Part shown: one piece after another, positions 1-11,056 of the stretch
How positions within the stretch are numbered: position 1 is the stretch's first letter
Layout of the letters: each line of letters starts with the position of its first letter
Virus record (IMG/VR): IMGVR_UViG_2663763028_000004
Span: 1 to 11,056 of that record
Strand: one strand, 5' to 3'
DNA from: a virus
Lineage: Duplodnaviria > Heunggongvirae > Uroviricota > Caudoviricetes
DNA length: 11,056 nt
The notes under the pieces: generated by a model
Told to the model about the DNA's origin: nothing
The model's database searches: none
What the model saw: the letters and a program-made list of their open reading frames with translations, nothing else
Translations under genes and position numbers: made by a program

Positions 1-472
1 TAGTAAACATCCGTCGAGGACTGATGAACGGTCGCCAAATCAGCAGCATGGAGCCTTTGCTGTTTCCCTTCTTCTCCAGCCCCGTCGATGGTTCGATAAA
101 ATTAATCCGTCCATCAGTGATAATGCGAACTTCGTCGACACTCTCCAGAGCCTTGCTGAACCATCCGACTGACATATCCTCTGGCACAAGCATCACTACC
201 GTCTGTCGCTGTTGTATGCACTGCTCAGCGGCTTTTTCCACCCACGGCCTGATATTGCTGTACGGTGGGTTATTCCAGATTGCCCCGTGGCTTATCCACT
301 CAGAATTTAGCGCGTCGTCGGCCTCAGTTAGCCAGTGAGCACACAGAGCATTTTTGTCGCTCGCTGCCGAATCCAGCCAGAATCCAAACTCAATATCCAG
401 TGCATCAAAAAGCCAAAGCGGCGTTTGCCAGCAGTCCTTGTCGTGTGCTGGCGTATTTGATTTGATAGTCAT
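1..472 (-). CDS. Phage-type DNA N6-adenine methyltransferase (Dam family); C-terminal end lies beyond the window start
   Basis: Not in the ORF track (no stop in window). My own reverse-strand translation from ATG (complement of 470-472) gives MTIKSNTPAHDKDCWQTPLWLFDALDIEFGFWLDS...WNNPPYSNIRPW..., with the NPPY catalytic tetrapeptide of N6-adenine MTases. Start overlaps the ninB stop (ATGA). Confidence 0.75.
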   Translation of the reverse strand, partial: MTIKSNTPAHDKDCWQTPLWLFDALDIEFGFWLDSAASDKNALCAHWLTEADDALNSEWISHGAIWNNPPYSNIRPWVEKAAEQCIQQRQTVVMLVPEDMSVGWFSKALESVDEVRIITDGRINFIEPSTGLEKKGNSKGSMLLIWRPFISPRRMFT

Positions 473-909
473 GCTGCCCGATCTCCCCATCGCGCTTTCC
501 ATTCGAGAGCCAGTCGAGCTTCGTCTGACCACTTAACGCCACGCTCTGTACCGAATGCCTGTATAAGCTCTAATAGCTCCGCAAATTCGCTTACACGCAT
601 CCTGCTGGTTGACTGGCCTATTACCACAAAGCCATTCCCGGCAAGGTTAGGAACAACATCCTGCTGCTTTAATGCTGCGGTAAACACACACTTCCAGCTT
701 TCTGCATCCAGCCAGCGACCATGCCATTCAACCTGACGAGAGACGTCACCAAGGCAAGCCCAAAGCTTTCGATTCTGGTCTAAGCTGCGGTTGCGTTCCT
801 GAATGGTTACTACGATTGGTTTGGTTGGGTCTGGAAGAATTTGCTGTACTGCGTGAATAGCGTTTTGCTGATGTGCTGGAGATCGAATTTCAAAGGTTAG
901 TTTTTTCAT
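469..909 (-). CDS. ninB: NinB (Orf-family recombination mediator)
   Basis: Track ORF 469..927; translation from the internal Met (MKKLTFEIRSPAHQQNAIHAVQQILPDPTKP...) matches lambda NinB as I recall it. Start trimmed to 909 because a GGGAGAGAGGGAAG Shine-Dalgarno sits just upstream of that ATG. Confidence 0.88.
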   Translation of the reverse strand: MKKLTFEIRSPAHQQNAIHAVQQILPDPTKPIVVTIQERNRSLDQNRKLWACLGDVSRQVEWHGRWLDAESWKCVFTAALKQQDVVPNLAGNGFVVIGQSTSRMRVSEFAELLELIQAFGTERGVKWSDEARLALEWKARWGDRAA

Positions 910-924
910 GACTTCCCTCTCTCC

Positions 925-957
925 CAAATAAAAAGGCCTGCGATTATCAGCAGGCCT
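925..957 (-). terminator. Intrinsic terminator between helicase gene and ninB (tR2-like position)
   Basis: 8-bp perfect stem AGGCCTGC/GCAGGCCT (934-941 / 950-957) with 8-nt loop; on the minus strand it is followed by TTTTTATTT (complement of 925-933). Confidence 0.6.
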
Positions 958-982
958 GTTATTAACTCAGTGATGTAGATGG

Positions 983-2359
983 TCATACGTCAGCCCCTTG
1001 TGCATATCGTCTGCCACGCGCAGCAGGTGCATTTGATGCTGTGCAAATCTGTCTGGCTTCATCCTGGTCACACGCAACAAAGTGTCCGTTGCAGAACCGC
1101 TGGTAAACCGTACCAAGCGAGCCAAAACGGTTTTTCGTCACGATGATTTCAGCAAATGGCGCGGCGCTACTGTTCTCGTCATATACCGCTTCCCGATAGA
1201 GCATGATGATTGAGTCTGCGTCCTGCTCAATGCTTCCTGAATCACGCAAATCTGCGTTTGTCGGGCGTTTATTTGGTCGCTTCTCAACATCGCGCGAAAG
1301 CTGACTCAGGGAGATAACAGACGTTTTCAGGTCTTTCGCCATCGCCTTCAGGCTTCCGGAGATGTGAGCAATTGCAAGGTCGTTGCGGTCTGCTTTCGGC
1401 TTCTCAATCAGGCCAAGATAATCCGCCATGATGAGTGACAGGTTTGGATTTTCCTGTTTGTGCCGTTCTGCGATTGAGCGTATTTCTTCGACCGATAACC
1501 GCGATGCATCGACTACCCATACATCCAAATCTGCAAGCTGACTCATGCCGTTAGCAACACGCGCCCAGCCTTCGTCATCCATCGATGCAGGATTTCGCAG
1601 CACGCTAACCGACATCCTCCCGGCGTTGGCAATGCTCCGCTCTGCAATCTGCAATGCGCTCATTTCCATTGAGAAAATCAATACTCCGCGCCGGACGTCA
1701 GAACCAGGAATAACGCGGCTTGCAACACCTTCGGCAATCTTCAGCGCCAGTTCGGTTTTCCCCATACCAGGACGAGCGGCGATAATCACCAGGTCTTCCG
1801 CGTTCATCCCTCCGGTGATAGCGTCAAGTTCTTCGATTCCGGTCTTCAGGGTATCGGACTCTTCTCCGTTCCTCAGACGCCTGTCAAGCGTGTCAGTGTA
1901 GTCAGTGATGATTTCACCTAACCGTACAGGTTTAACCTCGTCACGGGGCTTTCTGATGGCTGAGAGACGCTTTACAAGCTCATCCATCGCCTGACTCGAT
2001 GCGTCGATGGTTCCGCTCTGAATTGGTTCACGCATTTCGTCCATGATTTCCAGCACCAGACGGCGGTGATAGTTATCCGCGACCATTCCGGCATATCCCT
2101 TCAGGTTTGCGGCACTCGGGCAGTTTTTGCTGGTCATCAGGATTGACGTGAAATGCTCCTCTCCGCACGCCTCGGCAACCATCAGCGCATCGATTAGGTT
2201 TCTGTTTCTCGCCTGCTTGCGGATAACCTCGAAGGCTTTCCGGTAGAGTGGAATTGAAAACGCTTCCGGATCCAGCGTTGCCAGAACGTCGCTGGCGGTT
2301 GGTGTTAATCCACCAATCAGCAGGCCACCGATAACGCTCGCTTCGATATCCTGTCTCAT
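983..2359 (-). CDS. Replicative DNA helicase, DnaB family (phage P22 gene 12-type), replacing lambda P
   Basis: 458-aa track ORF; Walker A ARPGMGKT, Walker B-like LIMADYLGL, DnaB-like N-terminal domain. AGGGGGA RBS upstream; start overlaps the stop of the upstream O-like gene (ATGA). Confidence 0.9.
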
Positions 2360-3186
2360 GCAATCCCCCTGTCTGCAAACTTCCCTTCCCGTACTCCCGT
2401 TAACGAATCTTCCCTCAGCAGGTAATCAAAATCGGCCGTCCAGCCCGTGTCGTTGTCTCCGAAGTAAAACGGCTTGGCCTGATGCACAAACGCCCTGACA
2501 TACGCTCTGAAACCGTCCACGTTTGGCGTTTTCAGTTGCGGGATGATTTTCTTCAGGCGGCGTTTGCGTTTCTCGTTGACCGCAACAGCATGTGGAAGTC
2601 TGTCACCGACTTCGGTGTTGTAGGCGTTCAGGAAGGATTCGTAGTCGATTCGTTCTGCCTTGCGACGTTCAGGTTTAACCTGCCCATCGCCGCCCCCGTT
2701 AGGGGGTAAGGGGGTATTTGTATTTATTGTCTTTTGTATATTGTCTTTTGTGTTTGACTGATTCGGTAAATTGCTTTTTACCGATTTGGTGAAGGTTTGT
2801 TTTACCGAATTGGTAAATGTTTTACCGAATCCGTTAACTTTCGTTTTCCACTCGGAAATGTTTGTATTCATACCAACTTGACGCCCCACCTGAATGAGAA
2901 CTCCCATTCTGATAAGCTCGTTTTTGGCGGTAGAGCATTTGGTTGGTGCCATGCCAGTGAGTTCAGCGAACTGTTCGTTTCCGATCCAATCTATTTTTTT
3001 GTTGTAACCGTATGTCTTGCGCCACACAGCCATAACAATCAGTAACTGATGTAGAGTAAGTCCAGAAAGCATGGCGGCTTCTAACAGTGTGTTTGCAGTC
3101 CGAGTGTAGCCATCTTCGAGTTCTGCCACGCGATGCTCCACGACCTCCAGTTGAGGCCTGTAATCAGCTAACTTAACGACGCCCAT
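2356..3186 (-). CDS. O: Replication initiator, lambda O family (replisome organiser)
   Basis: 276-aa track ORF; N-terminal domain ([32 protein letters not shown]) resembles lambda O as I recall it. Low-complexity central linker ([15 protein letters not shown]) is encoded by the iteron array. Confidence 0.85.
2715..2838. repeat. Probable replication origin inside the O-like gene: iterons plus AT-rich tract
   Basis: Three direct copies of GTTTTACCGA(A/T)T starting near 2774, 2799 and 2819, one inverted copy (ATTCGGTAAA, 2761-2770), and an adjacent T-rich tract with tandem ATTGTCTTTTGT (2726-2750). Relative to O transcription the order is iterons then AT-rich tract, as in ori-lambda. Confidence 0.7.
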
Positions 3187-3334
3187 GTTTCACTCCTGCT
3201 TTGGCTAGTCTGTAAACACCAACAAGGCGCTCTGCGAACGCCCTGTTATTTGCTGCGGCTACCACTAATCCCTCAGGTGAATCAGGGTGTCGAATCTCTT
3301 CTTTTTCCTGGTATTTCTTACGACGTTTTGTCAT
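3173..3334 (-). CDS. Hypothetical small basic protein (53 aa) between cII and O
   Basis: Not in track (<60 aa). My translation: [59 protein letters not shown] Shine-Dalgarno 5 nt upstream; 3' end overlaps the O start. Confidence 0.4.
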   Translation of the reverse strand: MTKRRKKYQEKEEIRHPDSPEGLVVAAANNRAFAERLVGVYRLAKAGVKHGRR

Positions 3335-3344
3335 AATTACTCCT

Positions 3345-3421
3345 GTGGATTGATCCAGTAATTCCCTCAGAATTGCATATCAATTTGCTTAAAATCCTCG
3401 GTGGCGGCCGGGGATTTTTTC
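3345..3421 (+). ncRNA. oop-like antisense RNA overlapping the 3' end of cII (coordinates estimated)
   Basis: Extended -10 promoter TG-T-CATAAT (3329-3337) on the plus strand; plus-strand terminator hairpin CCTCGG/CCGGGG (3396-3413) followed by TTTTTT, inside and antisense to the cII 3' end. Same arrangement as pO/oop in lambda. Confidence 0.4.
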
Positions 3422-3663
3422 TTTGTGATTTCATCAAGCGCATACTTAAAAGCCCTGCTAATCGGACTGATGTCTGATGCCATTCCGAAAGCACACAAGA
3501 CCGAAGCAATAAATCTCCAGTCCGTTCTGCTTATCTTCGATTCATGACAGCCAATCATCTTTGCCAGACCGCGCTGTGTAAGCGTTGACAGGTTGATGAG
3601 TAAATCTGTTTCTGCGCGATCAACGTCGCGCTGTGATAGTTTGCTGTAACTTGTTTGTTCCAT
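3367..3663 (-). CDS. cII: CII-family transcriptional activator
   Basis: 98-aa track ORF in the canonical position downstream of cro and nutR; helix-turn-helix-like segment (GLAKMIGCHESKISR). Its start codon abuts a TTGC-N6-TTGT element, as in lambda. Confidence 0.8.
   Translation of the reverse strand: MEQTSYSKLSQRDVDRAETDLLINLSTLTQRGLAKMIGCHESKISRTDWRFIASVLCAFGMASDISPISRAFKYALDEITKKKSPAATEDFKQIDMQF
3394..3421 (+). terminator. Intrinsic terminator of the antisense RNA (tO-like), with bidirectional character
   Basis: 6-bp stem with one G-U pair, 6-nt loop, then a T6 run (3415-3420); A-run on the 5' side. Confidence 0.55.
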
Positions 3664-3673
3664 TTCTTACTAT
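3641..3673 (+). promoter_or_regulatory. pRE-like CII-activated promoter
   Basis: TTGC-tgtaac-TTGT-ttgttc-CAT (3641-3663) has the same spacing as lambda pRE (TTGC-N6-TTGC-N6-CAT, where CAT is the reverse of the cII ATG); candidate -10 TACTAT at 3668-3673 points toward cro/cI on the plus strand. Confidence 0.55.
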
Positions 3674-3697
3674 TTCCATGGGTAAATAATCACTAAT

Positions 3698-3715
3698 ACT
3701 CATCTTTCGATGAGT
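3698..3715 (-). terminator. tR1-position hairpin (7-bp stem, GAAA loop); terminator function uncertain
   Basis: ACTCATC-GAAA-GATGAGT on the minus strand between nutR and the cII RBS; no strong U-tract follows, so Rho-dependent or merely structural. Confidence 0.3.
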
Positions 3716-3727
3716 GCTTAATTAGTT

Positions 3728-3762
3728 ACCGCGTTGTCGGCGGTGCAGATTGATAAAGAGCG
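3728..3762 (-). promoter_or_regulatory. nutR (boxA + boxB)
   Basis: Minus-strand boxA CGCTCTTTA (complement of 3754-3762) directly after the cro stop; boxB hairpin ACCGC-CGACAAC-GCGGT (complement of 3728-3744) with a GACAA-containing loop, as in P22-type boxB. Confidence 0.65.
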
Positions 3763-3769
3763 GTGTTAC

Positions 3770-3997
3770 TTATGCAGCCAGAAGGTTCTTTTTGCTTATT
3801 TCAAGCATTTCGCTTGCTTGATATTTGCCACCAGAAATCTCTTCGATTTTTGATGCGTATTTAGTTTTCCCAAAAAACTCAGTCTTAGGGAGGAAGCCGT
3901 TTTTGAGCCACTTATAGACAGCCCTTTCGCTAACTCCACAAGCCTTCGCAACTTCAGGGATGCCGACACCTTTAATCGGCTCATCAAGATTTTGCAT
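3770..3997 (-). CDS. cro: Cro-like repressor (HTH)
   Basis: 75-aa track ORF transcribed divergently from cI across the operator region; HTH-like segment GIPEVAKACGVSERAVYKWL; AAGGA RBS 7 nt upstream. Confidence 0.8.
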   Translation of the reverse strand: MQNLDEPIKGVGIPEVAKACGVSERAVYKWLKNGFLPKTEFFGKTKYASKIEEISGGKYQASEMLEISKKNLLAA

Positions 3998-4075
3998 AGG
4001 AATATCCTTTTTCGTACTTTCAGTACGTATTATGGTTGAACTGAAAGTTTTTGCAAGTGCTTTAGTATCGTACTC
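3998..4075. promoter_or_regulatory. OR operator region with divergent pR and pRM
   Basis: pR candidate on the minus strand: -35 TTGCAA (4051-4056), -10 CATAAT (complement of 4029-4034). pRM candidate -10 TAGTAT (4063-4068) ends 8 nt before the cI ATG. Dyad elements: CGTAC-N5-GTACG (4013-4027); 9-mer ACTTTCAGT (4016-4024) with inverted copy ACTGAAAGT (4040-4048) flanking the pR -10; CGTAC again at 4069-4073. Confidence 0.65.
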
Positions 4076-4783
4076 ATGGTTCAGAATGAAAAAGTGCGCA
4101 AAGAATTCGCCCAGCGGCTAGCGCAAGCCTGTAAAGAAGCTGGTCTTGATGAACATGGTAGGGGGATGGCCATAGCCCGTGCCCTTTCTCTTTCGTCCAA
4201 AGGCGTTAGCAAATGGTTTAATGCTGAGTCTTTACCGCGTCAGGAAAAAATGAATGCGCTTGCGAAATTTCTAAACGTTGATGTTGTTTGGCTTCAGCAC
4301 GGCACTTCGTTAAATGGAGCGAATGATGAAGATACTCTTTCATTTGTTGGCAAATTAAAAAAAGGGTTAGTGCGCGTGGTTGGTGAGGCAATTCTTGGTG
4401 TTGATGGTGCCATCGAGATGACCGAAGAGCGCGATGGGTGGCTCAAAATTTATAGCGATGATCCAGATGCCTTTGGTCTTCGTGTGAAAGGAGACAGCAT
4501 GTGGCCTAGAATAAAATCAGGAGAATATGTACTCATTGAGCCTAACACCAAAGTATTCCCGGGTGATGAGGTGTTTGTCAGAACTGTTGAAGGACACAAC
4601 ATGATCAAAGTTCTTGGCTATGACAGAGACGGAGAATACCAATTTACAAGCATCAACCAGGACCACAGGCCAATAACGTTGCCTTATCATCAAGTAGCAA
4701 AGGTGGAGTATGTGGCTGGTATTCTGAAGCAATCTCGCCATCTGGATGACATCGAGGCAAGGGAGTGGCTGAAAAGTTCGTGA
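4076..4783 (+). CDS. cI: CI repressor (N-terminal HTH, C-terminal LexA-like S24 autopeptidase domain)
   Basis: 235-aa track ORF; C-terminal GDSMWP motif and a Lys about 40 residues later (S24 Ser-Lys dyad pattern); no Shine-Dalgarno before the ATG. Confidence 0.9.
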   Translation: MVQNEKVRKEFAQRLAQACKEAGLDEHGRGMAIARALSLSSKGVSKWFNAESLPRQEKMNALAKFLNVDVVWLQHGTSLNGANDEDTLSFVGKLKKGLVRVVGEAILGVDGAIEMTEERDGWLKIYSDDPDAFGLRVKGDSMWPRIKSGEYVLIEPNTKVFPGDEVFVRTVEGHNMIKVLGYDRDGEYQFTSINQDHRPITLPYHQVAKVEYVAGILKQSRHLDDIEAREWLKSS

Positions 4784-4843
4784 CTTCATCGTCACATAGC
4801 TGGTAACCAGTGGCCTGAAGAGACGTTTGGGTAAAGAGGATAG

Positions 4844-5097
4844 ATGGAGTTTAATGGCCATGAGTATCAAGCGGTCAAAAAGAAGTTCATCTATTCATTG
4901 AAAGCATAAGGCCATCTGAGTATATCCGTAATGATCTGGATATTGTCTATAACATCAATGACCGGACGATAGATATCGGTGAGCAGCGTCCTGTATGGCA
5001 GGGTGAGGCAGGTGAAAAAACGTCCTGCCATCAACAAGAATCAAGTGCATCCGCTCTCTGGACAGATGGAAAATTTATTGGATGCAAAAAGATATGA
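4844..5097 (+). pseudogene. Frameshift-split reading frame (about 84 codons if joined) downstream of cI
   Basis: ATG at 4844 with AAGAGGA RBS opens a 21-codon ORF (MEFNGHEYQAVKKKFIYSLKA). The -1 frame is open for 78 codons (4864-5097) with no ATG/GTG/TTG in frame. The two overlap at an A5 run (4877-4881) in the context C-AAA-AAG. Confidence 0.3.
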
Positions 5098-5207
5098 AAT
5101 AACACCTGTATAGCACGGAGCTTTCTCTGACCGATGCACTTGAAGTTGTTAGGGCTGACCCAGCCTGCTGTTTCTTTAGGTAAGAGAAAAGAGATTTAGG
5201 AGATGAA

Positions 5208-5235
5208 AGGTCGCAGAGGTGCGGCCTTTTTTATT
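5208..5235 (+). terminator. Intrinsic terminator downstream of the cI transcription unit
   Basis: 8-bp stem AGGTCGCA/TGCGGCCT (one G-U pair) with GAGG loop, followed by T-rich tract (5228-5235). Confidence 0.6.
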
Positions 5236-5335
5236 GAGAGTGGATCTTGAACGGAAATTCTCAAGACTTGAGTCTTACATGCAAATCAATTCCTGGATAA
5301 ACTCGATCTGAGTCAATAACTTAGAGAGAGAGCAA

Positions 5336-5857
5336 ATGGCAAAGTCAAACGTTAGCGTGCAGGCATTCAAGGACTTCCTTGAAGAGCTTATGTCGCTGAA
5401 CATAATGAAGGAGGCCACCGCTCGAAATTTAAAAAACTCATCCGCTCGCCTCTTAACGGTAGTCCAAGAAGAGGAAATGGGTGATGTTACTCAGCTTGAT
5501 GTGAATGAGCTTGCCGAGCGATACATCAACGCAACTGAGCCGAAGCCTAGCGACAGCAGCATTACTGCATATAAAAGCCGCATGGAAAGTGCAATCAAAA
5601 AGTTTGTAGCTTTCCAGTCTGGTGAAGAAATCCCATACACTCCGATTGACAAAGAATCCAGTGAGGAAAAAGATTTGACTGGCGAACCAACAAAAGTCGA
5701 AGGCAAGGCTAATGCACTTCATACCTATGATCTTCCAGTAGTTCTTCGACCTGAATCAGGGGTTACAGTAACGATTAAAGGCATTCCTAACGATATCACA
5801 AACGAAGAAGCCGAACGCATCTCTTCAATTCTGAAGGTTTACGTTCGGCCTCAATAA
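5336..5857 (+). CDS. Hypothetical acidic protein (173 aa), moron in the cI-pL interval; family not recognised
   Basis: Track ORF with purine-rich RBS (AGAGAGAGAGCAA-ATG). Same strand as cI, but separated from it by a terminator and followed by one. No hydrophobic segment and no motif I can assign. Confidence 0.7.
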   Translation: MAKSNVSVQAFKDFLEELMSLNIMKEATARNLKNSSARLLTVVQEEEMGDVTQLDVNELAERYINATEPKPSDSSITAYKSRMESAIKKFVAFQSGEEIPYTPIDKESSEEKDLTGEPTKVEGKANALHTYDLPVVLRPESGVTVTIKGIPNDITNEEAERISSILKVYVRPQ

Positions 5858-6030
5858 TGCAAAAGCATTCAGCACAATGTCCAACTCCCCAGTCCGACAT
5901 TGATGCTGTTTAACCAGAGCCTCCAAAAGGAGCCCTTGTTAAGGTACACAATATTTGCGATGTAACCTTAGCGCGTCTGGTACATTTTTTCAAGCGGTTG
6001 TAGGGCTGCCGCCAATATGAGAAAACACAG

Positions 6031-6153
6031 ATGTCTACATACAATTTGAATGACCAATTCGATCGAGAAGTTCATGTGAATGCCTATGAACGGATAAGGT
6101 ATGGAAATCTTGAACATGTGTGTGAGCATTATCGCTCAAGGCCACACCGCTAA
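6031..6153 (+). CDS. Hypothetical 40-aa ORF ending 8 nt before a terminator
   Basis: My translation: MSTYNLNDQFDREVHVNAYERIRYGNLEHVCEHYRSRPHR. Weak Shine-Dalgarno (GAGAAAA); supported mainly by position. Confidence 0.25.
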   Translation: MSTYNLNDQFDREVHVNAYERIRYGNLEHVCEHYRSRPHR

Positions 6154-6160
6154 TCATCAA

Positions 6161-6186
6161 CCCGGCCTCAGCGCCGGGTTTTCTTT
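6161..6186 (+). terminator. Intrinsic terminator closing the moron unit upstream of pL
   Basis: Perfect 6-bp stem CCCGGC/GCCGGG with 6-nt loop, followed by TTTTCTTT. Confidence 0.6.
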
Positions 6187-6352
6187 GCCTCACGATCGCC
6201 CCCCATATTTAATAGCCGAAAATGTGGTAAACCGCGAACCAACTCACCAGCAATACCCCCTTCAACTACAGACCAATCTGCAGCATTTACAAAAATAAAT
6301 TTCCTTATATATCAAAATCATATCTCGAAGCATTAATAAACCACAAAATTTT

Positions 6353-6400
6353 CGTACCAATAGTTCTTGATAATATCGAACTATTGGTTCATTATTGTCA
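6353..6400 (+). promoter_or_regulatory. pL/OL candidate region
   Basis: Perfect 11-bp-arm inverted repeat ACCAATAGTTC-N11-GAACTATTGGT (6356-6388); candidate -35 TTGATA (6367-6372) and -10 CATTAT (6390-6395) with 17-bp spacing; CGTAC motif (6353-6357) shared with OR; sits about 40 nt upstream of nutL. Confidence 0.4.
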
Positions 6401-6441
6401 CGTCAGCAGGAAGCTGGAAGCCAAACGGAACAGATTGGCAG

Positions 6442-6475
6442 GCTCTTTAACTTCGATGGGGCGCTGACAAAGCGC
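6442..6475 (+). promoter_or_regulatory. nutL (boxA + boxB)
   Basis: boxA-like GCTCTTTAA (6442-6450) and boxB GCGCTGACAAAGCGC (6461-6475), which matches the P22 boxB sequence as I recall it; lies in the N leader. Confidence 0.7.
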
Positions 6476-6594
6476 AAACAGATACCAAACGAGATGGGTT
6501 TGTCGGTGATGTGAATTGCAGCTGCAACGACAGCAACCAGAAGATCAGCACCTGGCGCATCACCACCAAAGCCATTTCACATGAGGAAAACATC

Positions 6595-6930
6595 ATGACG
6601 GTAATCGTGTACGGGAAATCAACATTTGCAGGAAATGCCAAAACTCGCCGTCATGAGCGGCGCAGAAAGATGGCTATCGAGCGTGATGCCATCTGCAACA
6701 TCATTGATTCTATCTTCGGCACAGACAGTGAGGAACCTGTTCAGGAGGCCCCAAGAAAGCGTTTAAGCCTTTCTGAAAAAGCAATATCACTCGGAAGCCT
6801 TCGCTGCAAGAAGGCAGAAGAAGTCGAGCGTAAACAGAACCGTATTTACTACCGCAAGCCACGCAGTGAAATGGGTGTGACTTGTGTTGGTCGCCAGAAA
6901 ATGAAATTAGGCAGCAAACCACTTATTTGA
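6595..6930 (+). CDS. N: Antitermination protein N (P22 gene 24-like)
   Basis: Start chosen at the internal Met of track ORF 6511..6930 (GAGGAAAA RBS). N-terminus MTVIVYGKSTFAGNAKTRRHERRRKMAIERD contains the arginine-rich boxB-binding motif and is near-identical to the P22 N N-terminus as I recall it. Confidence 0.88.
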   Translation: MTVIVYGKSTFAGNAKTRRHERRRKMAIERDAICNIIDSIFGTDSEEPVQEAPRKRLSLSEKAISLGSLRCKKAEEVERKQNRIYYRKPRSEMGVTCVGRQKMKLGSKPLI

Positions 6931-6938
6931 GGTGATAT

Positions 6939-7409
6939 ATGACAATATCATGGAGCGTACCTTTTCCTGAATCAGAAACTGAACATGATGGAATGCCTGT
7001 TTTCTGGAGATTCCAGGCGACAGTTGAAGAAGATGGAATCAAAATATTCGCACTTCAATATATAGCTTTTCATCAGACAGAGCATTATGCATGGTTGGTT
7101 CCTGCGCATTGGATTGTTAATTTTAAACCAGCACCAAATCAGTGGTTACAGGAATGGAAACAAAAGAGAAATAGATATGCAATTAAGAAAGTAGCAAAAA
7201 ATGCAGAAAGATCTTTTGCATTCCCAACGAAGAAACTTGCCATTGAAAGTTTATTGCGCCGGAAGAAATACCATTTAATGAGAATCAAACAAGATTTGGC
7301 TGTTGTATCAACTCTTGTTGATGGGATGAAGAATATTGATACATCAACACCAGATATTGAATATAACTTTGGACACAACCAAGAAACAGAAAATTGGGTA
7401 TTTTATTAG
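6939..7409 (+). CDS. Hypothetical protein (156 aa), AT-rich, directly downstream of N
   Basis: Track ORF with GAGGTGA RBS, 8 nt after the N stop; visibly lower GC than flanking genes (roughly 35-40 percent by eye); no motif recognised. Confidence 0.7.
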   Translation: MTISWSVPFPESETEHDGMPVFWRFQATVEEDGIKIFALQYIAFHQTEHYAWLVPAHWIVNFKPAPNQWLQEWKQKRNRYAIKKVAKNAERSFAFPTKKLAIESLLRRKKYHLMRIKQDLAVVSTLVDGMKNIDTSTPDIEYNFGHNQETENWVFY

Positions 7410-7423
7410 TACAAATAAGCACT

Positions 7424-7451
7424 GTGTATTCATTCCAACGAGTGAATACAC
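7424..7451 (+). other. Perfect 9-bp-stem hairpin (GTGTATTCA / TGAATACAC, 10-nt loop) without U-tract
   Basis: Seen directly, 15 nt after the orf156 stop; function unknown. Confidence 0.5.
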
Positions 7452-7513
7452 GGAGCAATGTCGCTCGTAACTAAACAGGAGCCGACTTGTTCTGATTATT
7501 GGAAATCTTCTTT

Positions 7514-7540
7514 GCCCTCCAGTGCGTGAGGGCCTTTTTA
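7514..7540 (+). terminator. Intrinsic terminator (tL-like), first of a tandem pair
   Basis: Stem GCCCTC/GAGGGC with 8-nt loop, followed by CTTTTTA. Confidence 0.65.
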
Positions 7541-7553
7541 TATGCATACCAAT

Positions 7554-7576
7554 AACGCTTCACTCGAGGCGTTTTT
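7554..7576 (+). terminator. Intrinsic terminator, second of the tandem pair
   Basis: Stem CGCTTC/GAGGCG (one G-U pair) with ACTC loop, followed by TTTTT. Confidence 0.5.
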
Positions 7577-7602
7577 CGTTATGTATAAATAAGGAGCACA
7601 CC

Positions 7603-7743
7603 ATGCAATATGCCATTGCAGGGTGGCCTGTTGCTGGCTGCCCTTCCGAATCTTTACTTGAACGAATCACCCGTAAATTACGTGACGGATGGAAGCGACT
7701 CATCGACGTACTTAATCAGCCAGGAGTTCCCAAAAATGGATAA
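7603..7743 (+). CDS. cIII: CIII (FtsH inhibitor stabilising CII)
   Basis: 46 aa from the internal Met of track ORF 7522..7743, AAGGAG RBS at 7591-7596. MQYAIAGWPVAGCPSESLLERITRKLRDGWKRLIDVLNQPGVPKNG is near-identical to lambda CIII residues 1-46 as I recall them. Confidence 0.85.
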   Translation: MQYAIAGWPVAGCPSESLLERITRKLRDGWKRLIDVLNQPGVPKNG

Positions 7744-7849
7744 AACACTTATGGCTATCCAGACTAAATTCACTATCGCCACTTTTATTGGCGATGAAAA
7801 GATGTTTCGTGAGGCCGTCGAAGCCTACAGAAAATGGAGGTCAAAATGA
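7736..7849 (+). CDS. kil: Kil (host cell-division inhibitor)
   Basis: 37 aa from the internal Met of track ORF 7610..7849: MDKTLMAIQTKFTIATFIGDEKMFREAVEAYRKWRSK matches the lambda Kil N-terminal region as I recall it; overlaps the cIII 3' end as in lambda. Confidence 0.7.
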   Translation: MDKTLMAIQTKFTIATFIGDEKMFREAVEAYRKWRSK

Positions 7850-8034
7850 TCCCGGTAGAACTGGCGAAAACTCCAGAGTTAAGTCGATTAAAAAGAGAGT
7901 ATCACATTGCTGAGGCTCGTTACTGGCGTAAAGCGGGAGATAAATCAAAGAAACAACTTTGCTTATGGCTGGCACAAAGAGAGCGCATGAATGAGCGCGA
8001 ATTTCTTTCCTCCCCATCCGAATTACCATTCTGA
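7846..8034 (+). CDS. Hypothetical protein (62 aa)
   Basis: GGAGG RBS 5 nt upstream of the ATG at 7846; ATGA overlap with the kil stop; C-terminus ...SPSELPF. Confidence 0.5.
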   Translation: MIPVELAKTPELSRLKREYHIAEARYWRKAGDKSKKQLCLWLAQRERMNEREFLSSPSELPF

Positions 8035-8042
8035 GGTGAATT

Positions 8043-8723
8043 ATGGGAACTGCGATATTAATACTCGGTGAGTCTGGCACCGGAAAATCAACCAGCATGA
8101 GAAATATCAATCCAGAGGAAGCAATACTTATAAAACCAATAGGCAAGCCGCTACCATTTAAATCAAAAGACTGGCTTGCATGGGATGCCAGAGCAAAAAA
8201 AGGAACCGTAGTTACCACTGACAAATGGGGTGTAATAGTTGCCGTAATTAAGCGTGCTCACGAATACGGGAAAAGAATCGTTATTGTTGATGACTTCCAG
8301 TATGTGATGAGCAATGAGTTTATGCGCCGCTCAGAAGAAAAATCGTTTGATAAATTTACTGAGATAGGCCGCCACGCATGGGAGGTCATTAAGGCTGCAC
8401 AGGATGCGCCTGATGACCTGAGAGTCTATTTTCTTGCGCACACCGAAGAAACCCCTATGGGGCGCGTGAAAATGAAGACTATCGGCAAAATGCTGGACGA
8501 GAAAATCACTGTCGAAGGCATGTTTACTATAGTTCTTCGCACTCTTACCCGCGATGACCAGTTCTTTTTCACCACGAAAAACAACGGTGCAGACACTGTT
8601 AAATCCCCAATGGGAATGTTTGATTCCAATGAGATTGATAACGATCTCTCTTTCGTCGATGCCACTGTTTGTGATTACTACGGCATCAATAATGTTCATC
8701 AAATTAAGGAAAACGCCGCATGA
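8043..8723 (+). CDS. P-loop ATPase, Sak4-like (RecA-fold recombination ATPase) candidate
   Basis: 226-aa track ORF; N-terminal Walker A GESGTGKST, Walker B-like RIVIVDD; located where lambdoid phages carry their recombination module; GAGG RBS. Confidence 0.6.
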   Translation: MGTAILILGESGTGKSTSMRNINPEEAILIKPIGKPLPFKSKDWLAWDARAKKGTVVTTDKWGVIVAVIKRAHEYGKRIVIVDDFQYVMSNEFMRRSEEKSFDKFTEIGRHAWEVIKAAQDAPDDLRVYFLAHTEETPMGRVKMKTIGKMLDEKITVEGMFTIVLRTLTRDDQFFFTTKNNGADTVKSPMGMFDSNEIDNDLSFVDATVCDYYGINNVHQIKENAA

Positions 8724-9307
8724 GCAACGTAATTTTTACTTATAACGAAGAAGCAGCACTGACCGCAGGGCAAGGTGGTTTTATTAACGAAACTGGCGCT
8801 TACATAATTACCATTACTGAAGCAGAACTCAAGCAATCAGAAAAAGGAGCCAAATTTATTGAGTTTTCTGGAGAATCCGACGACGGACGTAAAATCCAGT
8901 ATCTTAGCGTCTGTGTTCAGAAAAATGACGGCACGGAAAACAAATTTGGCGCAAATGTCGTTCACGCCATGATGGGGTGTGCCGGGATTGGACAATTAAC
9001 GCAACATATGGTTTCCGCCAGTAAATTTGTTGCACCTGAATTTCATGGAAAGAAAATCGGGTTAGTGCTCCAGAAAGTATTAACCACAAACAAAAAGACT
9101 GGCGCAGACAGCTACCAGATGGAAATACGCATCCCGTTTATTGCACAAACAGGTCAAACCCTTAAAGAAAAGGCAGAAGGCAAGCAACCAGAAACTATCG
9201 CCAACATGGTTGCCAGCCTCAAAGATAAAGACAATCGCTCTAAAAACGTAAGCCATAATCATGCAGATGATTATGGTTACAGCCAGAACGATTACCCTCC
9301 TTTCTGA
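8720..9307 (+). CDS. Hypothetical protein (195 aa) with SSB-like acidic/aromatic C-terminal tail; putative ssDNA-binding partner of the ATPase
   Basis: ATGA overlap with the upstream ATPase gene; C-terminus DDYGYSQNDYPPF resembles the SSB C-terminal DDDIPF tip; the body does not look like a canonical OB-fold SSB to me. Confidence 0.55.
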   Translation: MSNVIFTYNEEAALTAGQGGFINETGAYIITITEAELKQSEKGAKFIEFSGESDDGRKIQYLSVCVQKNDGTENKFGANVVHAMMGCAGIGQLTQHMVSASKFVAPEFHGKKIGLVLQKVLTTNKKTGADSYQMEIRIPFIAQTGQTLKEKAEGKQPETIANMVASLKDKDNRSKNVSHNHADDYGYSQNDYPPF

Positions 9308-9330
9308 TTACTGAAAATAAGGCTCCCATT

Positions 9331-9627
9331 ATGCCAGCGCCTCTGTATGGTGCGGATGACCCGCGCAACTGCTCCGGTAGCTCCAAGGCGGAGGTGCTGG
9401 GAAATATCAAAAACAATTTCGACGCGTTTCTTGCTCTGACACCAGAAACAAAAGCAGAACGGATGTACCGACGCGATATACAACTCGCGCTAAAACAGGA
9501 GAAGGACCGAACAAACGAAACAGCAATGAGACCGTTGCGAAAAGCGACAATAGACAAATTCCCTGAATATATCGACCCGCGCCTGCGTAATTACCGCTCA
9601 CGCTATGGCGCTATCAGTAATGACTGA
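9331..9627 (+). CDS. Hypothetical protein (98 aa)
   Basis: Track ORF in operon orientation with a weak AAGG Shine-Dalgarno. Confidence 0.5.
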
Positions 9628-9637
9628 GGAATTTACC

Positions 9638-9805
9638 ATGAGAGGACTTGCATACAATCCCGGCATTCTTCCGGCAGAAATGATTATTCGCCAACGCGTA
9701 AAGCCAATGCCATCGAGAGAGGAATTGCTTAAGAGAAAGAGTTTCGGTTCTGTTAATGACAACAAATATCTGAATGCGATGTGGCGTAAAGGAGGCAGCC
9801 AGTGA
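9638..9805 (+). CDS. Hypothetical protein (55 aa)
   Basis: Internal Met of track ORF 9605..9805 with GAGGA RBS 7 nt upstream; its stop overlaps the next start (GTGA). Confidence 0.4.
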
Positions 9806-10446
9806 ATAACCGTTTTTACATGATGTGCTTGCGTGAAACTGTGGGTAATAACGCCTCATTCCATTGCCATAACGGCAATGGTTACAGTTCTGATATCGAT
9901 CGCGCTCATGTTTACACGCTGGAAGAAGCCCAAAAATCCTGGAATTGTGGTCGAGATATCGATCAGCCTGTTTGCGCTGATAGCGTGGATGCAATGGCTG
10001 TGTGGCACGTTGATTGCCAGTACATCCCTACAGAAAGCCTGATTGAGCCAGATTGTACTGCGTATGTGGCCTACAAAAAAGGTAGCTGGAACGGCAACGA
10101 TGTTTACTGGCTTCAACACGGTGGATTGCCAACAGATGACTTCAGTAAAGCGACCATCTTTAGCGTCGCCAACAAAAACGAACCAGGAATAGTTTGGTTG
10201 CCATTTTCCATTGCTGATGCAGCAAAGCACCGGACGTTCAATATCAATAACTTTAACCGCAGAACAATGGTTCAGGGCGCAGGTTTGGTCATGCCTGACT
10301 GGTTGAAAGAGCAGAACAGAAGAAAGAAGTCGCGAAGCGGGAAGGTGCGTTGGAATTGTCCGCATTGCGGAAAAATAACCTGGCAGTACAGCCCATATGA
10401 TTTTGAAGGCTGTCGTGATTACAACTGTGAAGGATGGCGAGAATGA
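9802..10446 (+). CDS. Hypothetical Cys-rich protein (214 aa) with C-terminal CPHCGK...C...C zinc-ribbon-like motif
   Basis: GTG start preceded by strong AAAGGAGG RBS; translationally coupled on both sides; multiple Cys/His clusters. Confidence 0.7.
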
Positions 10447-10958
10447 CAATTGACTATCAGGCACTGCGAGATGCGGCAGTTGCAGTAGAAACAGAACCTA
10501 TGCATCAAAATTTTGTGGCGTTTCGTATGGCGTTCACGCCATCGGTGGCACTGGCACTACTGGATGAAATTAAGCGGCTGGAAGACACAAATATTGATGC
10601 TATGTGCCGTATTGCAGAGCTTGAGACTAATCTCGCGGCGCTGGTGGCAGAGAACGCCGGACTGAAACACGCAATGGCCGTAACTCTTGAGCATGTGTCG
10701 GTCACGGATGCAGGGCAGGCTGGTGTTGCTGCAATGATTATCAACGATGCCCTGCACCACAGCGAAACCCCAGCCACCGATGCTTTCCTGGCTGAAGTAC
10801 GGGCGCAGGGGGTAGAGATGCTGGCAAAAAATCATCAGAGTATCGTCAATGCACTTAAGGGAGATTCTTTATTTTCTGATGGTGAATACCGACATGCAGC
10901 TATTGTTTCCGCAGCTGTATATTTCGCTGCAGAGCTTCGCAAAGGAGGCAACCAGTGA
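10443..10958 (+). CDS. Ea22-like family protein
   Basis: N-terminus [15 protein letters not shown]...FTPSVALALLDEIKRLED follows the pattern of lambda-region Ead/Ea22-like proteins and of the adjacent paralog. Start placed at 10443 (GAAGGA RBS, ATGA overlap) rather than the track's 10434. Confidence 0.65.
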   Translation: MTIDYQALRDAAVAVETEPMHQNFVAFRMAFTPSVALALLDEIKRLEDTNIDAMCRIAELETNLAALVAENAGLKHAMAVTLEHVSVTDAGQAGVAAMIINDALHHSETPATDAFLAEVRAQGVEMLAKNHQSIVNALKGDSLFSDGEYRHAAIVSAAVYFAAELRKGGNQ

Positions 10959-11056
10959 GCGAAATTAATTACCAGGCACTGCGTGAGGCGGCAGAACGTG
11001 CAACTCCAGCAATGGAACGCCTGTTAATGTTGCCAGTTGATGATGATTTGTTAAGT
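10955..11056 (+). CDS. Second Ea22-like paralog, 5' fragment (continues beyond window end)
   Basis: GTG start with AAGGAGG RBS 7 nt upstream, GTGA overlap; VSEINYQALREAAERATPAMERLL... parallels the N-terminus of the preceding gene. Confidence 0.55.
   Translation, partial: MSEINYQALREAAERATPAMERLLMLPVDDDLLS

Follow-up and report, generated by a model that had tools for sequence, protein, structure and literature searches.

The window analysed here, an 11,056-nt stretch that covers positions 1 to 11,056 of the Caudoviricetes record IMGVR_UViG_2663763028_000004 in IMG/VR, corresponds, when read leftward, to the part of a lambdoid prophage that governs immunity and replication (Table 1). The gene order is cro, cII, oop, a small ORF, the gene for an O-like initiator and the gene for a DnaB-like helicase; it matches the annotated order of P22, whose record also includes a promoter and a terminator for oop. 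Over the stretch from cII to the O-like gene, the phage records most similar to the window are those of Stx1/Stx2 phages, Nil2, HK97, HK75 and HK106 (96-99% identity), and no phage record spanning the whole window was found. The CII protein encoded here is only 35% identical to lambda CII; the part of this protein best conserved between the two phages is its tail, with the pattern KK-PAATE--QI-M-F.

Table 1. Genes, signals and predicted RNA elements of the immunity and replication region in the window
Feature	Position (nt)	Strand	Description or evidence
cIII thermoregulator	7590-7648	+	Rfam Lambda_thermo, full-length, 88.5 bits; over the start of a cIII ORF
N-like antiterminator		+	
cI	4076-4783	+	
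cro	3770-3997	-	
cII, target of the antisense RNA	3367-3663	-	98 aa; Pfam Phage_CII, 5.4e-32; PHROG 191
Sense/antisense overlap of oop and the cII 3' end	3367-3421		55 nt, includes the cII TGA stop codon
Predicted oop RNA	3345-3421	+	77 nt, G3345 to C3421; start and length from alignment to the lambda transcript
Intrinsic terminator tO	3391-3424	+	12-bp G+C-rich stem (3391-3402/3407-3418), GGCG loop (4 nt), T-run
5' stem-loop of oop	3345-3388	+	Outer helix 3345-3354/3379-3388, inner hairpin 3358-3364/3370-3376; MFE and centroid folds
Shine-Dalgarno sequence (SD) of the 53-codon ORF, AGGAG	3340-3344	-	Adjoins the oop 5' end
pO, extended -10	3329-3337	+	TG-T-CATAAT (TGTCATAAT); read directly, identical to lambda pO
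pO, -10 hexamer	3332-3337	+	
pO, would-be -35 position	3308-3314	+	Weak: CTGGTA, 3/6 at 18-nt spacer; TGGTAT, 2/6 at 17-nt spacer
53-codon ORF, HK97 gp53 family	3173-3334	-	PHROG 1331, 1.4e-37, full length
O-like replication initiator, P22 gene 18 type	2356-3186	-	Pfam Phage_rep_O, 4e-36; PHROG 345
DnaB-like helicase	983-2359	-	
NinB		-	

Several other elements are discernible around these genes. The gap between cro and cII contains, on the minus strand and as read by eye, a boxA-like sequence, CGCTCTTTA (3754-3762), which is followed by a hairpin, ACCGC-N7-GCGGT (3728-3744), and then by a second hairpin, ACTCATC-GAAA-GATGAGT (3698-3715). Together, the elements at 3698-3762 presumably represent nutR and the structure preceding cII. 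Within the 5' end of cII, the plus strand carries TTGC-N6-TTGT (3641-3654) which, by coordinate transfer, occupies the position of the putative pRE CII binding site in the HK629 record and departs at its last base from the consensus of lambda, TTGC-N6-TTGC. The O-like gene contains, at 2753-2847, four iteron-like repeats, TTTTACCGAWTYGGT, with a spacing of 20-24 nt, in a place where the G+C content dips to 0.37; these are probably the replication origin, comparable with the one annotated within P22 gene 18. A 173-aa ORF of PHROG 2602 (5336-5857, plus strand) lies between cI and the gene for the N-like protein, a position where lambdoid phages often have accessory or exclusion genes.

The oop RNA is the textbook antisense regulator of the lysis-lysogeny decision in lambda. 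An earlier note on this DNA had proposed an oop-like RNA with an extended -10 promoter, TGtCATAAT, at 3329-3337 of the plus strand, and TGTCATAAT is indeed present there. The predicted +1 G is located 8 nt beyond the -10 hexamer, as in lambda. An extended -10 element can work without a -35 element. The hexamers at the would-be -35 position in the window match at only two or three of six positions, compared with four of six both in lambda (TTGAGT) and in P22 and BTP1 (TGGTCA), and pO was not called by a general promoter scan. Full activity of lambda pO reportedly requires sequence as far as 94 nt upstream of the initiation site (Hayes et al. 2018, PMC5869508); the corresponding stretch of the window is not homologous, the 53-codon ORF standing in place of O. 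Given the poor -35 and the replacement of the lambda upstream sequence, the strength of pO in this context is the least secure step of the reconstruction. A LexA box at pO was considered and dropped: the sequence upstream of the -10 shows no CTGT-N8-ACAG, and the term LexA is absent from PMC3349717.

The 9-mer TGNYATAAT by itself is within chance expectation: the window contains two matches where 0.73 are expected, a number attained in 33 of 200 shuffles. Its conservation was traced with three pattern scans of IMG/VR; the matches listed for the second, which used pO as its anchor, were nearly identical to those of the first, and the third, from which the lambda/HK97 body was excluded, added P22-type loci. 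Among the matches listed, the scans yielded 245 places with a conserved pO/5'-oop block. The TG was not part of the search pattern, and TGNCATAAT is retained in 242 of these 245 loci, with N being T, G, C or A. In the same set of listed matches, the second codons behind the motif are ACA, CCA, GCA and TCA, and the motif is kept regardless of the gene that lies downstream, be it lambda O (299 aa), the 53-codon ORF, the P22-type orf48 or the gene for a 214-aa protein.

This conservation is partly confounded with constraints on the downstream gene, which has its SD, start codon and second codon here. In the window, the start codon of the 53-codon ORF lies within the -10 hexamer, the CAT of CATAAT being the complement of ATG, and the second codon supplies the TG. 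From nucleotide 23 onwards, the oop sequence is cII coding sequence, and the oop body is confounded with the coding of the CII C-terminus. It could accordingly be argued that there is no RNA gene at all, the conserved positions reflecting the translation start of the downstream gene and the CII tail, which is the part of the protein best conserved with respect to lambda, and the hairpin being incidental; the chance-level frequency of the 9-mer on its own would fit this interpretation as well. Nevertheless, we consider it highly improbable. The TG persists across four different second codons and unrelated downstream proteins, and thus appears to be maintained independently of the protein. The other lines of evidence against a purely coding origin come from the terminator and from the transcripts of related phages, as described below.

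Homologous in sequence to lambda oop, the element also shares its location and orientation, which agrees with the identity that had been suggested for it. Without gaps, 58 of the 77 positions (75%) match lambda oop; the -10 region is identical and nucleotides 1-28 of the transcript are nearly so. The alignment to lambda predicts a transcript of the length put forward in the earlier note (about 77 nt, antisense to the cII 3' end). The oop segment is predicted to fold into two hairpins (-30.4 kcal/mol, z = -4.2). The same note had proposed a covariance comparison with lambda oop, and such a comparison was made: a model built from ten lambda-type oop sequences only, with which the window was scanned with filters off, aligns end to end (model positions 1-79) to 3345-3423 of the plus strand, with 60.9 bits and E ~1.8e-11. 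This is the only significant match in the window; the next best is the terminator hairpin on the minus strand (3391-3418, E 0.41). A search of the window region against Rfam 15, with both gathering and E-value thresholds, produced only sub-threshold chance matches and no oop match. The oop region of lambda itself, used as a control, gave no match either; Rfam thus has no oop family, and the silence on the window is uninformative. Four sites resembling terminators are present in 2800-4300, where 1.5 are expected. It is the combination of the promoter motif and the terminator with homology, that is, sequence identity, fold and the covariance match, that places the feature above chance.

The terminator tO is located inside the 3' end of cII. 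The interval initially assigned to it, 3394-3421, was essentially right and corresponds to the G+C-rich core and T-run of the complete element. TTCTTTG follows directly 3' of the stem, with an uninterrupted T-run at 3415-3420 and more T's up to 3424. In lambda oop, the terminator hairpin occupies the same alignment columns, with two of the pairs swapped. Among the matches listed, the IMG/VR loci include 31 distinct sequences of the 77-nt class, and across these variants the tO helix is 98.7% paired. Two adjacent pairs are CG and GC in 17 of the sequences and UA and CG in the other 14, with zero broken intermediates. On the cII strand, these switches replace one Arg by Ser and another by Asp (KKRPAATERS vs KKSPAATEDF). 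Because each paired switch alters an amino acid, the stem has been upheld at the cost of change in CII, on both arms, which is not what would be expected if only the CII tail were under selection. As the two compensated pairs are linked and possibly go back to one evolutionary event, they are supporting rather than overwhelming evidence. Further tO alleles likewise end in a hairpin followed by a U-run, and so do the P22-type bodies, in which an unrelated cII tail bears the antisense hairpin. Together with the transcripts detected in lambda, P22 and BTP1, these observations argue for an RNA gene.

The stem is nearly palindromic, which raises the question of the strand on which it functions. It might serve the sense strand, either as a stabilising 3' structure or as a pause or termination signal of the pR transcript at the end of cII. 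On the minus strand, the stem is followed by TTTTAAGC, and the weak minus-strand covariance match mentioned above involves the stem alone. However, a long uninterrupted T-run (six T's, then CTTT) is found on the plus strand only, lambda-type alleles have no minus-strand T-run after the stem, and a terminator acting in this direction would cut off the replication genes. A role of the hairpin in the sense transcript therefore appears just as improbable as the absence of an RNA gene, and tO is best regarded as the terminator of the antisense RNA.

In the 5' stem-loop of the predicted RNA, the 5' arm of the outer helix, G-N-GAU-W-GAUCCAG, is nearly invariant, with two variable positions, and permits two pairing registers; the 3' arm carries AUCAAU in the window allele and CUGGAU in lambda. 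Lambda-type stems pair AGAUCCAG with CUGGAUUU, and window-type stems pair GGAUUGAU with AUCAAUUU in a shifted register. Of the 31 variants among the matches listed, 14 use the window register and 17 the lambda register. When the window sequence is threaded on the lambda structure, three of the eight 5'-stem pairs are non-standard because the window allele uses the shifted register. The 5' stem of the window allele also encloses an inner 7-bp hairpin, the loop of which is complementary to the cII stop codon in the predicted fold; lambda oop lacks this extra hairpin. Judging from the folds, this 5' stem, with its shifted register and inner hairpin, appears to be the only real structural difference from lambda.

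With its sequence features, homology, structural conservation and genomic context all directly observed, the element is very probably the oop gene of a lambdoid prophage, in an allele common to HK97, HK022, Nil2 and many Stx phages. It shares with the pO-oop-tO unit of lambda the position, the orientation, the TGTCATAAT -10 element with the start codon of the downstream gene, the +1 context and the length of 77 nt. There is no substantive difference from HK97, HK022, HK75, Nil2 and Stx phages 1717 and 2851, to which the window is 96-99% identical in the stretch formed by cII, oop, gp53 and the first part of O; the oop sequences of HK97 and HK75 differ from that of the window in one loop base. 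At the homologous position, the HK629 record has a feature described as 'similar to lambda oop RNA'. The oop element, its conservation in these phages and the extra ORF are all already published: Hayes et al. 2012 (PMC3349717) described a conserved 33-bp pO/5'-oop block in lambda, 434, 21, Stx phages, 933W, HK022, HK97, Nil2, P22 and others, and also mentioned a 162-nt ORF for HK97, HK022, Nil2 and Stx phages.

The systems of P22 and BTP1 are more distant. They have the conserved pO/SD/5' block in common with the window (TGGCATAAT TAC[T/C]CCTG, then GATTGATCCAGT), followed by a small ORF, orf48, which starts in the promoter, and by a replication module of the gene 18/12 type; the RefSeq record of P22 places the oop promoter over the start of orf48, and the same arrangement is found in BTP1. 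In contrast, the oop body and terminator of these phages are unrelated in sequence to those of the window, the RNA is shorter (~63-67 nt), and the lambda-based covariance model gives only E 0.1-0.2. The P22 oop coordinates given in PMC13397905 do not fit the RefSeq record, and the region was located via the annotation. BTP1, for which the OOP transcript is mapped, was considered as a case of the 53-codon ORF context and rejected, since it carries orf48.

The 53-codon ORF downstream of pO is the known gp53 of HK97 and HK022, and is annotated in HK97, HK75 and HK629. Its end overlaps the start of the O-like gene by 14 nt. At least 86 intact copies are present in the IMG/VR loci; they comprise 19 nucleotide variants with 6, 8 and 5 variable sites at the three codon positions, and are too similar to show coding bias. 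The product is very basic. The first ~11 codons resemble by eye the orf48 variant MTKQLSPYQDKI, with which the ORF shares a CCTGGT that falls in the -35 region of pO; BLASTP of the 53-codon ORF product against that of P22 orf48 produced no alignment. That the promoter overlaps the start of this ORF had been presented as a departure from lambda; the overlap is real, and the ORF is indeed missing at the lambda position. The overlap as such is not a departure, however, because the CATAAT of lambda holds the start codon of O. Lambda O also uses an SD identical to that of the 53-codon ORF, and the oop 5' end abuts it in the same manner. Across the 245 loci among the matches listed, the three types of oop body (lambda, HK97 and P22) combine freely with the four downstream genes. 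The pO/SD/5'-oop block of ~35 nt (3329-3366 in the window) thus appears, from these sequence comparisons, to be a mosaic joint, in agreement with the 33-bp region of Hayes et al. 2012, a paper that already contains this point as well as the retention of the TG irrespective of the protein.

By analogy with lambda, P22 and BTP1, the host sigma-70 RNA polymerase would initiate at the extended -10 of pO, at or near G3345, transcribe against the direction of the pR operon and halt at tO inside cII, which would yield a transcript of about 77 nt. The last 55 nt of the predicted RNA are a perfect complement of the cII mRNA's 3' end, and the overlap in lambda, where cII ends at 38653, is of equal length. 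This 3' part of the RNA would pair with the cII mRNA, and the duplex would be cut by RNase III, as in lambda, with less cII mRNA and CII and a shift to lytic growth as the expected outcome. That OOP controls cII in an RNase III-dependent manner in lambda is credited to Krinke and Wulff, as cited in PMC2327240 and PMC12197685. OOP had little effect on the loss of CII after SOS induction of lambda (PMC2327240), so the antisense effect appears to be physiologically modest even there. With its 5' end next to the AGGAG of the 53-codon ORF, oop may also have a small influence on the translation of the genes downstream. No transcript data were found for the allele of the window; transcripts are reported only for lambda, P22 (RNA-seq, PMC13397905) and BTP1 (RNA-seq, PMC7067206).

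Firing of pO head-on against pR may, in addition, reduce the amount of transcription arriving at the replication genes and the origin, as in lambda. In the extreme version of this scenario, the promoter itself, through bound or firing RNA polymerase that collides with pR transcription, sets the level of transcription across the 53-codon ORF, the O-like gene, the helicase gene and the origin, and the RNA is largely a by-product. We regard this as a possible but rather unlikely primary role. In lambda, mutation of the pO -10 increases pR read-through and impairs replication, whereas the level of oop RNA has little effect on plasmid copy number (PMC3985674), and in the window pO similarly faces pR transcription upstream of a replication module with iterons. 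Yet a pure roadblock would have no need of a conserved, compensated RNA body and a terminator, and an antisense effect on cII has been documented for lambda. The replication result may also fail to transfer, because the module in the window is of the P22 type and the distance between pO and the iterons exceeds that in lambda by ~135 nt. Promoter interference and antisense action are non-exclusive, and the antisense RNA remains the preferred reading, to which interference may be added.

The weak -35, the foreign upstream sequence, the re-registered 5' stem and the extra hairpin over the cII stop codon are the reasons why the HK97-type allele could differ in function from lambda oop. It could be differently regulated, could be allele-specific among the cII mRNAs of co-resident prophages, or could tune the translation of the 53-codon ORF and, through coupling, of the initiator; the last possibility is conceivable because the SD of this ORF directly adjoins the oop 5' end. 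Taken together, such a functional divergence is improbable, appreciably more so than a primary role of promoter interference, though not to the extent of the interpretations that dispense with the antisense RNA.

The HK97-type allele is common in Escherichia coli. The 131-nt stretch at 3300-3430 is present with 100% identity in many complete genomes of this species, and 463 of 5,426 such genomes contain at least 80% of it. In the RefSeq annotation of E. coli, this stretch is covered only by a 'CII family transcriptional regulator' and a 'hypothetical protein', with no ncRNA (e.g., NZ_CP025913.1, 4578394-4578524). For Stx phages, oop is one input to the lytic switch that governs toxin release, a link that has already been discussed (PMC5488031). 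The identification of the element in the window has little importance beyond correct annotation, and what remains is the differences between the alleles and an annotation gap: thousands of prophages would receive an oop label from a curated covariance model that includes the lambda, HK97 and P22 types.
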